In this document: positions 7,092 to 49,656 of the stretch, one piece after another | Layout of the letters: each line of letters opens with the position of its first letter | Numbering within the stretch: position 1 is the first letter of the stretch | Assembly: GCF_002854065.1 (NCBI RefSeq) | Contig: NZ_CP024147.1 | Direction: 5' to 3' (one strand) | Source of the DNA: Escherichia coli | Lineage (GTDB): Bacteria > Pseudomonadota > Gammaproteobacteria > Enterobacterales > Enterobacteriaceae | Length of the DNA: 64,000 nucleotides | Notes under the pieces: generated by a model | Databases searched by the model: none | Seen by the model: only the letters and a program-made list of their open reading frames with translations | What the model was told of the DNA's origin: nothing | Program-made: the position numbers and the translations under genes

Positions 7092-7350
7092 GCCGGAGGC
7101 GACGCTGCGCGTCTTGTCCGGCCTACGAGAGTGTAGGTCGGATAAGGCGTTTACGCCGCATCCGACAATCGGCGCACCCTGCCGGAGGCGATGCTTACGC
7201 GTCTTGTCCGGCCTACGGAAATGTAGATCGGATAAGGCGTTTACGCCGCATCCGACATTCGGCGCATCCATGCCGGAGGCGACGCTGCGCGTCTTGTCCG
7301 GCCTACGAGAGTGTAGGTCGGATAAGGCGTTTACGCCGCATCCTACAATC
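7092..7350. repeat. Three tandem ~90-bp REP/BIME units in gabT-gabP spacer
   Basis: Unit gccggaggcgacgctgcgcgtcttgtccggcctacg...cggataaggcgtttacgccgcatccg repeated three times with few substitutions; classical REP palindromes. Confidence 0.9.
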
Positions 7351-8917: not shown

Positions 8918-9580
8918 ATGACCATTACGTCTCTGGATGGCTATCGCTGGCTGAAGAACGATATTATTCGCGGTAATTTTCAACCGGATGAAAAATTACG
9001 AATGAGTTTGCTGACATCGCGTTATGCACTTGGCGTTGGGCCGTTACGGGAAGCTCTTTCGCAACTGGTGGCGGAACGGCTGGTCACGGTGGTGAATCAA
9101 AAAGGGTATCGGGTGGCGTCTATGTCAGAGCAGGAGCTGCTCGATATTTTCGATGCCCGCGCCAATATGGAAGCGATGTTAGTGAGTCTGGCGATTGCCC
9201 GCGGTGGCGATGAGTGGGAGGCAGACGTTCTCGCAAAAGCGCATCTGTTGAGTAAGCTTGAGGCCCGTGACGCCAGCGAGAAAATGCTTGATGAGTGGGA
9301 TCTGCGTCATCAGGCGTTTCATACGGCAATTGTGGCGGGCTGTGGTTCTCACTATTTGCTGCAAATGCGTGAACGGTTGTTTGATCTGGCGGCGCGCTAT
9401 CGATTTATCTGGCTGCGACAAACAGTGCTTTCGGTGGAAATGCTGGAGGATAAACACGATCAGCACCAGACCCTGACTGCGGCGGTACTGGCGCGAGATA
9501 CCGCGCGCGCCAGTGAGTTAATGCGCCAGCATTTACTGACGCCAATTCCCATTATCCAGCAGGCGATGGCTGGCAATTAA
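8918..9580 (+). CDS. csiR: GntR-family repressor CsiR
   Basis: Sequence MTITSLDGYRWLKNDIIRGNF...; GGAG RBS 7 nt upstream of this ATG. Confidence 0.93.
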   Translation: MTITSLDGYRWLKNDIIRGNFQPDEKLRMSLLTSRYALGVGPLREALSQLVAERLVTVVNQKGYRVASMSEQELLDIFDARANMEAMLVSLAIARGGDEWEADVLAKAHLLSKLEARDASEKMLDEWDLRHQAFHTAIVAGCGSHYLLQMRERLFDLAARYRFIWLRQTVLSVEMLEDKHDQHQTLTAAVLARDTARASELMRQHLLTPIPIIQQAMAGN

Positions 9581-10030
9581 CTACTCTTCAGGAATACGCA
9601 ACACTTGCCCCGGGTAAATTTTATCCGGGCTTTTTAGCATCGGTTTATTCGCTTCGAAGATTTTATTGTACAGATTGGCGTTACCGTAGACCTGTTTGGA
9701 AATGGCACTCAGAGTGTCGCCAGACTTAACGGTATAAAACTGGCTGGCAGTGGCTGGTGTCGCCGTTTTCACCTGATCATCAACACTGGCAATGCCGGAA
9801 ATATTCCCCACCGCAACAAGGATTTTCTCTTTCGCCTCCTGACTCAGGCCGTCACCAGTGACCGTCGCTTTGCCATCGGCAATTTGAATGTTCACTTTAT
9901 CGGCATCCGGTATACCGGTTTTGTTCAGATGCTCCTGCACCTTCTTCGCCTGATCGTCTTTATCGTGCTGACCTGTAACCGCGTCCCAGAGTTTTTCTCC
10001 GGCATCTTTCACAAAATTGAACAGACCCAT
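9581..10030 (-). CDS. kbp: K+-binding protein Kbp/YgaU (BON + LysM domains)
   Basis: Sequence [21 protein letters not shown]...; stop codon directly abuts csiR stop. Confidence 0.93.
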
Positions 10031-11282: not shown

Positions 11283-11334
11283 GCTTGAGAAGCGACGCCG
11301 GACGCGCCATAGCAGTGACATCCGGCCTCAGTAA

Positions 11335-11739
11335 TTAGATCAGGAAATCGTCGAGAGATTTACCTTCTGCCAGCGCCTGAGCGATTGGCTTCGGTGTACG
11401 GCCCTGACCGGTCCAGGTTTTAGTTTCACCGTTAACATCGGTGAATTTATATTTCGCCGGACGCGGCTGGCGTTTTTTACCAGCGCGTGGTGCAGCAGCA
11501 GAGCTATTACCCAATAACTCTTCCGGGTTAATTCCGTCAGCCTTCATCAGCTCCAGCCAGGTGCTAATTTTTTCCTGACGCTCAGCCAGTTCACGCTGCT
11601 GCTGTTCTTCTTCTTCACGTCTTTCTTTAGTGACAACCCTGAATTTTTCGAGCATTTCTTCAAGAACGTCAATGGAGAATTCGCGAGCCATCGCACGGAG
11701 GGTGCGAATGTTATTTAAACTTTGTAACATTACGGACAT
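11335..11739 (-). CDS. stpA: H-NS paralogue, DNA-binding protein StpA
   Basis: 134-aa [36 protein letters not shown]... Confidence 0.96.
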
Positions 11740-23339: not shown

Positions 23340-23425
<86 letters not shown>

Positions 23426-32075: not shown

Positions 32076-32148
32076 GAAAGACGCGCATTTGTTATCATCA
32101 TCCCTGAATTCAGAGATGAAATTTTGGCCACTCACGAGTGGCCTTTTT
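32076..32148 (+). ncRNA. micA: MicA (SraD) small regulatory RNA
   Basis: Sequence gaaagacgcgcatttgttatcatcatccctgaattcagagatgaaattttggccactcacgagtggccttttt recognised as MicA, including the terminator hairpin and U-tail. Confidence 0.9.
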
Positions 32149-46413: not shown

Positions 46414-47187
46414 ATGAAACCTCGTCAGCGTCAAGCCGCCATTCTGGAGTATCTGCAAAAGCAGGGTAAATGCTCGGTTGAAGAATTGGCGCAATACTTT
46501 GACACCACAGGCACAACCATTCGCAAAGATCTGGTCATTCTGGAACATGCCGGAACCGTCATTCGTACTTATGGCGGAGTGGTGTTGAATAAAGAGGAAG
46601 CCGATCCGCCTATCGATCATAAAACACTCATCAACACCCACAAGAAAGAGCTGATAGCAGAAGCTGCCGTTGGTTTTATTCATGATGGCGATTCGATCAT
46701 TCTTGATGCTGGCAGCACCGTTTTGCAGATGGTGCCTCTGCTCTCGCGCTTTAATAACATCACGGTGATGACCAACAGTCTGCATATCGTCAATGCGTTA
46801 TCTGAACTGGATAATGAACAAACTATCCTGATGCCAGGCGGAACGTTTCGTAAAAAATCGGCCTCATTTCACGGGCAGCTGGCAGAGAATGCCTTCGAGC
46901 ATTTCACCTTCGACAAATTATTCATGGGTACTGACGGCATCGATCTCAATGCGGGCGTAACCACCTTCAACGAGGTCTATACCGTCAGTAAGGCAATGTG
47001 CAATGCCGCGCGCGAAGTGATTTTGATGGCGGACTCATCAAAGTTTGGCCGTAAAAGCCCCAACGTAGTTTGCAGTCTTGAAAGCGTCGATAAGCTGATT
47101 ACCGACGCAGATATCGATCCGGCGTTTCGTCAGGCGCTGGAAGAGAAAGGGATCGATGTGATCATAACCGGAGAGAGCAATGAGTGA
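46414..47187 (+). CDS. srlR: DeoR-family glucitol operon repressor
   Basis: 257-aa [32 protein letters not shown]... Confidence 0.95.
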
Positions 47188-48145
47188 AGCACTACTGAAC
47201 GCGGGACGTCAGACGTTAATGCTGGAGTTGCAGGAAGCAAGCCGCTTACCGGAACGTCTGGGCGATGATTTTGTTCGCGCCGCCAATATCATCCTGCACT
47301 GCGAAGGCAAAGTGGTGATTTCGGGAATTGGCAAATCGGGCCACATTGGTAAGAAAATCGCCGCAACGCTTGCCAGTACTGGCACACCGGCTTTTTTTGT
47401 CCATCCGGCAGAAGCACTGCACGGCGATCTGGGGATGATCGAAAGCCGCGATGTGATGCTGTTTATTTCTTACTCCGGTGGCGCGAAGGAACTGGATCTG
47501 ATTATTCCGCGTCTGGAAGATAAATCTATCGCGCTGCTGGCGATGACCGGCAAACCGACGTCACCGCTGGGCCTGGCGGCGAAAGCGGTGCTGGATATCT
47601 CCGTAGAACGCGAAGCCTGCCCGATGCACCTTGCGCCGACCTCCAGCACCGTCAATACCCTGATGATGGGTGACGCGCTGGCGATGGCGGTCATGCAGGC
47701 GCGCGGATTTAATGAAGAAGATTTTGCCCGCTCCCACCCAGCCGGGGCACTGGGCGCTCGCTTGCTGAATAAAGTGCATCATCTGATGCGCCGTGATGAC
47801 GCTATCCCGCAGGTAGCGTTAACCGCCAGCGTGATGGATGCGATGCTGGAACTCAGCCGCACCGGTCTGGGGCTGGTGGCGGTATGTGACGCTCAACAAC
47901 AGGTACAAGGCGTCTTTACCGACGGCGATTTACGTCGCTGGCTGGTTGGCGGCGGCGCACTCACCACGCCAGTTAATGAAGCGATGACGACAGGCGGTAC
48001 CACATTACAGGCACAAAGCCGCGCCATCGACGCCAAAGAGATCCTGATGAAGCACAAAATCACTGCCGCACCGGTGGTAGATGAAAACGGCAAACTCGTC
48101 GGCGCAATTAACCTGCAGGATTTCTATCAGGCCGGGATTATTTAA
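47180..48145 (+). CDS. gutQ: D-arabinose 5-phosphate isomerase GutQ (SIS + CBS domains)
   Basis: 321-aa ORF; stop codon overlaps norR stop on the opposite strand. Confidence 0.95.
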
Positions 48146-49656
48146 TCCTTCAATCCCAGACGTTTCGCCAGCCGATGCAGGTTGGCGACGTCGGTTTCCA
48201 GCATTCGCGCGCAGGCTGCCCAGTTGTGATGATTTTGTGCCAGTGCCTGACGAATAGTTTCACGCTGGAACGCTTCTGTCGCTTCACGCAGGTTTTGCTT
48301 AACAACGGGCACCGCCGCCGCTTCTGGCGGCGGTAACGTCACCTCAGGAAAAGCAAAATGTTGCGCCTCAAGAATCACTTCATCGCCGTTGCGGGTGGCT
48401 CTCGCCAGAACTACCGCCCGATGAATAGCATGTTCCAGTTCGCGCACGTTTCCCGGAAAACTGTAGTGTTGCAGTAAATTTCGCGCTCCGGCACTTAATA
48501 CCACGCGGGAGAGCCCCTGCCGCAAACGACACTGCTCGCAGAAATACCCCGCCAGCAGAATGACATCATCGCCCCGCTCACGCAGCGGCGGCACCGAAAG
48601 TGGAAACACGCTCAGGCGGTGGAACAAGTCAGCGCGAAATCGCCCTGCCAGCACCTCTTCGCGTAAGTCGCGGTTAGTCGCCGCCAGCACGCGCACATCG
48701 ACCCGCAAACTACGGTCATCGCCAACGCGCTGAATATCGCCATACTGCAACACCCTCAGCAGCTTGGCCTGCAATGCCAACGACAACTCGCCGATCTCAT
48801 CCAGAAACAGCGTGCCGTTATCCGCCATTTCAAACTTCCCACTGCGGTTACTGATAGCGCCAGTAAACGCTCCTTTCACATGCCCGAACAACTCACTTTC
48901 CGCCACACTTTCCGGCAGTGCGGCACAGTTGAGATAGACCAGCGGATTCACCGCCCGTGGCGAGGCCTCATGAATCGCTTTCGCCACCAGCTCCTTACCG
49001 GTTCCCGTCTCACCGCTGATCAGGACGTTGAGATCGGACGCCGCCACAATCTCAATCTCTTTTTTCAGTTGCGTCATGCCAGGGGACAAGCCAATCATCT
49101 GCGTCTGTTTCACCGCTTCAAATGGAGCGGCATCGCCCGGCAACATATTCTGGCTTTCCAGTTGCTCAATCAGCAACGCATTGCTTAACGCTCCCGCCGC
49201 CAGCGCGGCAATCAGGCGTAACTCTTCGTCGCTGAAAACATCGAACTGATCGGGCTGCATCCCGTCGAGCGTCAATGCGCCGATCAGGTTTTGCCCGGCA
49301 AACAGCGGCAGACCAACGCAGGCGTGAACCTTCAGACTCTCCTGCCCTGGAATCAAACCGTCATAGGGATCGGGCAATTCGCTGTCTGCGGGAAAGCGCA
49401 CCACATCACCCGCGCGGGCAATCGCTTCCAGCCGTGGATGACCTTCCAGCGCAAAGCGTCTACCGAGTACATCCTTCGCCAGCCCGTCGATGGCAAGCGG
49501 AATAAACTGCCGCGAGTCGTAACGTAGCAACGCAGACGCATCGCACTCCAGCACCTGACGCAGCGTGGTGATCAGGCGCTGAAAACGATCCTGATGACCA
49601 ATCCCACGCTGCAATTCGATGGCGATATTCGCCAGCACATCAACGGAAAAACTCAT
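48142..49656 (-). CDS. norR: Sigma-54-dependent NO-responsive activator NorR
   Basis: Sequence [28 protein letters not shown]... with AAA+ sigma-54 activator motifs ([14 protein letters not shown]); ORF track start is an upstream extension. Confidence 0.95.

Follow-up and report, generated by a model that had tools for sequence, protein, structure and literature searches.

In a 64,000-nucleotide (nt) window of Escherichia coli DNA (contig NZ_CP024147.1 of assembly GCF_002854065.1; "the window" denotes this whole stretch), the convergent gene pairs csiR/kbp and gutQ/norR leave no intergenic space between their stop codons, and the published 3' ends of the csiR and kbp transcripts both fall within the coding sequence (CDS) of the partner gene. 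Compaction very probably explains this arrangement: the signals that end the transcripts have been displaced into the partner gene, as an intrinsic terminator for csiR and as Rho termination with a protective hairpin for kbp and probably gutQ, with duplex RNA as a by-product. On this explanation, the absence of any intergenic space would place the 3'-end signals inside the partner CDS and make the transcripts overlap tail to tail. The csiR transcript would stop at an intrinsic terminator made of kbp codons, and the polymerase transcribing kbp would most likely run on until Rho stops it a few hundred nt further in, after which its RNA would be trimmed by exonuclease back to a GC hairpin. The csiR and kbp RNAs would pair in vivo and the duplex would be cut by RNase III, and the gutQ transcript would probably pass a strong hairpin and be ended by Rho within antisense norR.

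The window is 98.6% identical to K-12 MG1655, from which the transcript data discussed below were taken. Compared with strain 100416, it shows 100% identity across the queried csiR–kbp kilobase and 99.9% across the gutQ–norR kilobase. To place the Term-seq ends of Adams et al. (2021), the printed flanking strings were located on both K-12 and the window, with one offset, 16509, holding for both csiR/kbp ends; the 3'-end position in these strings is base 51 of 61, as verified on the thrL entry. Coordinates of the p19-captured clusters were converted from U00096.2 to the window via the 5'-end string at 2794362, which corresponds to window 9584.

Geometry of the convergent junctions

The csiR stop codon is immediately followed by the stop of kbp (ygaU) on the opposite strand (+ strand ...GGC AAT TAA/CTA CTC TTC..., with the slash at the junction), giving a spacer of 0 nt and no shared nucleotides. 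At the gutQ/norR junction (ATT ATT TAA) the CDSs overlap by 4 nt, with 2 nt common to both stop codons and the sense codons untouched. A preliminary description of this DNA had pointed out both the abutting csiR and kbp stops and the gutQ and norR stops overlapping within TTAA, and the sequence and the RefSeq annotation agree with it in either case. The RefSeq ends are the same in the 100%-identical strain and in K-12 MG1655 (csiR ...3581 / kbp 3582...; gutQ ...44270 / norR 44267...).

CsiR carries the Pfam domains GntR and FCD and is a GntR/FCD repressor, whose gene closes the glaH(csiD)-lhgO-gabDTP-csiR cluster, and Kbp is a BON-LysM potassium-binding protein. gutQ, the last gene in the srl/gut operon, encodes arabinose-5-phosphate isomerase (SIS and CBS domains), and norR encodes the sigma-54 activator of norVW, with GAF and Sigma54_activat (sigma-54 AAA+) domains. 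It is extremely improbable that one stop of each pair is not the true protein end and that the abutment or overlap is merely apparent. The C-terminal tail of CsiR does lie outside the FCD domain, which stops at residue 206 of 220, and its length differs among genera. However, stop codons are given by the sequence itself and are not a choice of the annotator, and conserved domains reaching to 2–4 residues from the Kbp and GutQ ends establish the reading frames. In the 149-residue Kbp, BON spans residues 24–89 and LysM residues 99–147, to within 2 residues of the end, and the CBS domain of GutQ extends to residue 317 of 321. Identical ends are found in thousands of genomes, and the C-terminus of Kbp reads RIPEE or RIPE before the stop in all close relatives. 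Misannotation of the stops is essentially excluded.

The csiR transcript ends at an intrinsic terminator inside kbp

A terminator scan of the + strand detected a hairpin followed by a T-run 28–55 nt beyond the csiR stop, within kbp. The stem-loop (9609–9629) consists of 9 pairs, 5 of them G-C, with a loop of 3, and is followed by C and U5 (9631–9635); its folds range from -12.3 to -13.8 kcal/mol, with z about -2.3. A Term-seq 3' end, listed as 'antisense ygaU', lies at 2796391(+) of U00096.3 with 1,697 reads in lysogeny broth (LB) at an optical density (OD) of 2.0 (Adams et al. 2021, eLife 62438, PMC7815308, Supplementary file 1). Mapped onto the window, this end is the last T of the T-run, at 9635, which gives csiR a 3' untranslated region (UTR) of 55 nt (9581–9635) within kbp. 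With a stem-loop directly followed by a U-rich tract, and an in vivo end in that tract in K-12, the csiR end has the features of a canonical intrinsic terminator. The preliminary description had held that neither pair has room for terminators; this is true of the intergenic space, but the csiR terminator sits within the last kbp codons.

The stem derives from the codons of the LysM peptide P-D-K-I-Y-P-G, whose sequence CCGGAT AAA ATT TAT CCGGG is palindromic, and the U tract is the other-strand reading of the kbp Lys-Ser codons AAA AGC. The hairpin and a run of four to five T residues are kept in 16 of 16 csiR-adjacent sequences. This conservation is not evidence of selection for termination: in nearly all genomes the peptide sequence by itself accounts for the hairpin, and the T-run is likewise not specific to csiR, being present in some genomes without this gene (10 loci of the comparison set described below).

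The kbp transcript ends at a hairpin inside csiR

On the opposite strand, Term-seq gave a 3' end at 2796240(-) of U00096.3, listed as 'antisense csiR', in all three conditions, with 23,751 reads at LB OD 0.4 and 614,566 at LB OD 2.0 (Adams et al. 2021, PMC7815308). This end maps to window 9484, 97 nt into csiR and 3 nt past the stem of a GC hairpin, and the kbp 3' UTR is wholly antisense to the last 32 csiR codons. The terminal hairpin (9487–9514) has an 8-pair core, CUGGCGCG/CGCGCCAG, and folds at -16.7 kcal/mol; it lacks a U tract and is followed by the sequence UACC/GCCGCAG. It is encoded by the csiR codons L-A-R ... R-A-S, and across Escherichia, Salmonella and Citrobacter its core hardly varies: C. 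braakii has one compensatory change from G-C to A-U, and two G-U pairs occur. The preliminary description had deduced that each 3' UTR must be antisense to the partner CDS, and had named 3' end mapping as the check; for csiR/kbp the published Term-seq bears this out, with ends 55 nt into kbp and 97 nt into csiR and none seen before the junction.

Beyond the hairpin, a bicyclomycin-sensitive Rho region was reported at 2795811(-), with a Rho score of 6.6 and p = 1.3e-18 (Adams et al. 2021, Supplementary file 2). Its peak maps roughly 430 nt past the end of the kbp RNA, and the stretch of RNA between the hairpin and the peak is C-rich and G-poor, with a C/G ratio of 1.54 over 484 nt. As the antisense of coding DNA is generally C-rich, this ratio is weak evidence. 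The kbp end shares two features with the Rho-dependent stem-loop class, namely a stem-loop without a U tract and a bicyclomycin-sensitive downstream region with more C than G. For this class, Dar & Sorek (2018, NAR gky274, PMC6061677) described Rho-terminated transcripts with steady-state ends just past a stable stem-loop lacking a U tract, reached via 3'–5' trimming. The kbp end resembles it in lying 3 nt after a GC stem-loop, with C-rich sequence and a bicyclomycin-sensitive region downstream. It differs in that both its stem-loop and its Rho loading region lie antisense to protein-coding sequence, whereas in the published class they are intergenic sequence. By analogy, we infer that the kbp RNA is trimmed back to the hairpin by exonuclease.

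Overlap and duplex RNA at csiR/kbp

The mature csiR and kbp RNAs share a segment of 152 nt, which has the potential to form double-stranded RNA (dsRNA). Using p19 capture, Huang et al. (2020, PMC7373196) found an RNase III dsRNA cluster, S-217 'csiR ygaU', of the 3' convergent type in stationary phase (U00096.2 2794108–2794391, about 150 reads per million), in a row that cross-references the 412-nt convergent operon overlap of Conway et al. (2014). The cluster extends about 150 nt past the trimmed kbp end, which is consistent with readthrough kbp RNA pairing with csiR mRNA. The same table lists no cluster for gutQ/norR. At LB OD 2.0 the kbp 3' end exceeds the csiR 3' end about 360-fold in abundance, and both ends rise at this density.

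An 'antisense TSS' (transcription start site) has been placed at window 9584 (-), exactly at the kbp stop codon, with an RNA starting GTAGTTAATTGCC, 11 reads and a match of 3/6 to the -10 element (Dornenburg et al. 2010, cited in Huang et al. 2020). No antisense TSS of Thomason et al. is listed there, and our promoter scan, in which the csiR/kbp junction showed no sigma-70-like site nearby, gives no support for 9584 as a promoter; this 5' end could equally be a processing site. Together with the mapped 3' end it would delimit a kbp 3'-UTR RNA of about 101 nt (9584 to 9484, -), perfectly complementary to the last 97 nt of csiR plus the stop codon. That this is a discrete and very abundant RNA, acting as a cis-antisense regulator of csiR via RNase III, seems to us quite unlikely. 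If true, it would couple the induction of kbp by potassium, osmotic conditions and stationary phase to de-repression of the CsiR-controlled glutarate/GABA (gamma-aminobutyric acid) catabolic genes. No Rfam family was found at the csiR/kbp or the gutQ/norR junction.

Changes in the mRNAs of neighbouring genes in an RNase III mutant have also been reported. In an rnc-14 mutant, gabD mRNA is up 4.3-fold in exponential and 1.9-fold in stationary phase, and gabT 2.3-fold and 2.1-fold (Huang et al. 2020, Table S2). These changes could arise from duplex formation at the 3' end of the operon, or be indirect. gabD and gabT (K-12 U00096.2 2789295–2792037) are located upstream of window 7434.

The gutQ/norR transcript ends

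A hairpin 11–49 nt past the gutQ stop (48156–48194), within the last norR codons, folds at -23.5 kcal/mol (z = -4.45), a stability that none of 200 shuffles reached, and the stem does not vary among four E. coli lineages. Near the TTAA the terminator scan detected no site for gutQ or norR, and this hairpin fails the intrinsic-terminator pattern. Further in, a Rho region antisense to norR was reported at 2831288(+), with a Rho score of 5.3 and p = 2e-12 (Adams et al. 2021, Supplementary file 2), and its peak lies about 510 nt beyond the gutQ stop. For norR, the terminator scan, folds and lineage comparison gave no convincing 3'-end element. None of csiR, kbp, gutQ and norR is mentioned in the SMRT-Cappable-seq supplements.

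A further Rho region, internal to srlR, was found at K-12 2829346 with a Rho score of 3.7 (Adams et al. 2021), corresponding to window ~46713 (+). It implies that the srl-promoter transcription which arrives at gutQ has been attenuated before the gutQ/norR junction.

Table 1. Positions in the window of the junctions, transcript-end elements and duplex RNA at csiR/kbp and gutQ/norR
Feature	Position	Strand	Detail	Evidence
csiR (= glaR) CDS	8918..9580	+	stop TAA 9578-9580	open reading frame (ORF) list, RefSeq (100%-identical strain, K-12), Pfam
kbp (ygaU) CDS	9581..10030	-	stop TAG, reverse complement of 9581-9583	ORF list, RefSeq, Pfam
csiR/kbp zero-spacer junction	9578..9583		TAA/CTA	sequence
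csiR intrinsic terminator within kbp codons	9609..9635	+		terminator scan, folds, Term-seq end, conservation
kbp 3' UTR	9484..9580	-	97 nt	Term-seq, folds, hairpin conservation
Bicyclomycin-sensitive (Rho) region antisense to csiR, peak	~9055 (approximate)	-		Adams et al. 2021, mapped
Segment in both mature csiR and kbp RNAs	9484..9635		152 nt	difference of Term-seq ends
p19-captured RNase III dsRNA cluster S-217 'csiR ygaU'	9330..9613			Huang et al. 2020 Table S1e, converted
gutQ CDS	47180..48145	+	stop TAA 48143-48145	ORF list, RefSeq, Pfam
norR CDS	48142..49656	-	stop TAA, reverse complement of 48142-48144	ORF list, RefSeq, Pfam
gutQ/norR CDS overlap	48142..48145		TTAA, 4 nt	sequence; annotated alike in K-12 and two divergent E. 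coli strains
Hairpin past gutQ stop, within last norR codons	48156..48194	+		fold, conservation
Rho termination region antisense to norR, peak	~48655 (approximate)	+		Adams et al. 2021, mapped

Frequency, conservation and origin of the arrangement

E. coli has 75 convergent overlapping CDS pairs (Huvet & Stumpf 2014, PMC4161906). By direct logic, convergent stop codons that overlap but spare every sense codon must form TTAA, TTAG, CTAA or CTAG, and therefore a 4-nt overlap is the expected minimal form. gutQ/norR is exactly this minimal stop-on-stop kind and shows no difference from the short overlaps of that survey; csiR/kbp, with a spacer of 0, stands formally outside the class. In the K-12 annotation of the corresponding 50-kb stretch, the spacers of the six convergent pairs are 0, 46, 36, 63, -4 and 127 nt, and the two with a spacer of 0 or less represent at most a mild local excess. 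A 50-nt stretch across the csiR/kbp junction has an ungapped match in 5,412 of 5,426 complete E. coli genomes, and an allele with a 3-nt spacer occurs in 4 of them. The TTAA overlap of gutQ/norR is retained in E. coli lineages with only 92–94% identity at the locus. Both junctions are an ordinary, common arrangement in E. coli and do not go beyond expectation.

For the evolution of the csiR/kbp junction we compared 80 loci encoding Kbp relatives, with one genome per species. In 14 of the 80 loci, all from Escherichia, Salmonella or Citrobacter, csiR lies directly against kbp, with spacers of 0, 3, 6 or 12 nt. Elsewhere in the Enterobacterales, the terminators after kbp are ordinary intergenic ones of the hairpin-plus-T-run type. 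Since kbp elsewhere has intergenic terminators and adjacency to csiR is confined to three genera, the abutment is derived, and the end signals within the genes are a consequence of it. After the shared ...QQAM, the CsiR tail (window ~9540–9580) reads AGN or AG in E. coli, TGKMKPGAA in Salmonella and SGKLLTE in Citrobacter, each followed by the stop. Relative to Salmonella and Citrobacter, E. coli seems to have a junction contracted by some 24–30 nt.

Relation to known systems

The concept of the excludon, in which neighbouring genes have overlapping transcripts, reportedly goes back to Sesto and colleagues in 2013. From 58 RNA-seq sets, Sanmartin et al. (2025, NAR gkaf686, PMC12288877) described an 'excludome' of E. 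coli MG1655 with 165 convergent excludons (Table 1 of that paper), in 146 of which predicted terminators lie inside the transcription unit of the neighbour; the mean intergenic distance of the E. coli excludons is 95 nt. The list includes 'glaR-kbp' and 'gutQ-norR', with overlap in at least 50% of the 58 data sets. We take glaR to be csiR because of its place in the genome-ordered list and because kbp has one convergent neighbour only. This RNA-seq coverage supports the earlier proposal that in both pairs the transcripts run into the partner gene.

Both pairs are tail-to-tail neighbours (ORFs, RefSeq) with overlapping transcripts (published K-12 data), as convergent excludons are, and they share with that class the terminator in the neighbour's unit. 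A published p19 cluster documents dsRNA processed by RNase III at csiR/kbp, while none is listed for gutQ/norR. They differ from the class in two respects. Both the csiR and the kbp end increase at OD 2.0, in contrast to the mutually exclusive expression that defines the class, and with 0 and -4 nt the two pairs are extreme, the overlap lying in coding and not in UTR-only sequence. The overlapping bidirectional terminators (Ju et al. 2019; Wang et al. 2022, preprint 10.1101/2022.10.23.513370) are likewise convergent with overlapping mapped 3' ends, but there a single palindrome is shared, whereas csiR/kbp has a canonical intrinsic terminator and a second, separate end element at a distance of 152 nt, and Rho sensitivity on both sides.

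Much of this is already known: the geometry is in every E. coli annotation, and the overlap has been in print since 2025, the end coordinates since 2021 and the dsRNA cluster since 2020.

Weighing the explanations

Several observations weigh against compaction with displaced end signals. The source of every transcript data set is a strain other than that of the window. The terminator-like pattern on its own is not enriched over shuffles (3 found, 1.6 expected), and the significance of the csiR terminator comes from its coincidence with a Term-seq end and not from the pattern. No covariation is available in the csiR terminator hairpin, where each variable, synonymous site pairs with a fixed non-synonymous site, so that covariation is impossible in principle; in the kbp hairpin it is not significant, as 141 of 500 shuffles reach the observed score. 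With no significant covariation in either embedded hairpin, selection on the RNA fold and constraint from the encoded protein cannot be told apart at these sites. For gutQ and norR, the Term-seq tables of Adams et al. (2021) hold no exact 3' end, for which low expression under the Term-seq conditions is a possible explanation. The hairpin past the gutQ stop is trailed only by GGUUUCC, with just three U residues, and by its fold and analogy it may be a candidate 3'-end-protecting structure or a weak terminator of the gutQ transcript.

The overlap might alternatively be a selected regulatory excludon, kept since the expression of one gene lowers that of the other by polymerase collision and/or RNase III cleavage; strong stationary-phase or osmotic transcription of kbp would then lower CsiR, the repressor of glaH-lhgO-gab, and readthrough from srl/gutQ would lower NorR. 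Both pairs have been classed as excludons, a dsRNA/RNase III cluster exists at csiR/kbp, and the spacer is tiny (0–12 nt) throughout the three genera. The roughly 360-fold excess of the kbp end at LB OD 2.0 means that nearly every csiR 3' end could pair, and the gabD and gabT mRNAs are up in the rnc mutant. However, the joint rise of the csiR and kbp ends at OD 2.0 is co-expression and not mutual exclusion, the spacer length and the CsiR tail vary among genera as drift at an unconstrained junction predicts, the rnc effect on gabDT may be indirect, and gutQ/norR is absent from the p19 clusters. On balance we consider a selected regulatory role rather unlikely; transcriptional interference, which the preliminary description had raised, is a possibility at either pair. 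In collision-driven overlapping bidirectional termination, one hairpin element would pause polymerases arriving from both sides, and head-on and trailing collisions would release them. That class needs neither a U tract nor Rho and is known for hundreds of convergent E. coli pairs, and both the kbp-side end and the gutQ-side hairpin lack a U tract. Yet csiR and kbp end at two different hairpins 152 nt apart and not at a common one, the csiR hairpin with its U tract forms a canonical intrinsic terminator, and bicyclomycin affects both antisense regions although the class is Rho-independent. The shared, Rho-independent hairpin of an overlapping bidirectional terminator was not found at csiR/kbp, and we regard this mechanism as improbable here, with a smaller chance than that of a regulatory excludon.

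Other features in the window

A third convergent pair with nearly or actually overlapping RNAs is ygaP/stpA, at window ~11290–11340. In K-12 the stpA 3' end lies about 4 nt from the ygaP stop (Term-seq 2798048, 237,656 reads, 'primary, antisense' to ygaP; Adams et al. 2021), and the ygaP CDS is two codons shorter in the window strain than in K-12. Rfam naRNA4 (CssrE, of the repetitive extragenic palindromic type) has three matches on the + strand, two in tandem between gabT and gabP (7136–7213 and 7226–7303) and one further downstream (23342–23419). The gene for the small RNA MicA is found at 32076–32147 (+; Rfam 83.9 bits), adjoining luxS as in K-12.

Biological meaning

csiR/kbp offers a clean worked example of how, once the spacer is lost, sequences of the partner gene take on the tasks of ending the transcript and stabilising its 3' end, among them an intrinsic terminator built from the codons of the conserved LysM motif of kbp. 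As a discovery it carries little weight; of some value would be a possible regulatory effect of the large excess of the kbp 3' UTR over the csiR 3' end on CsiR and on gab/glaH.

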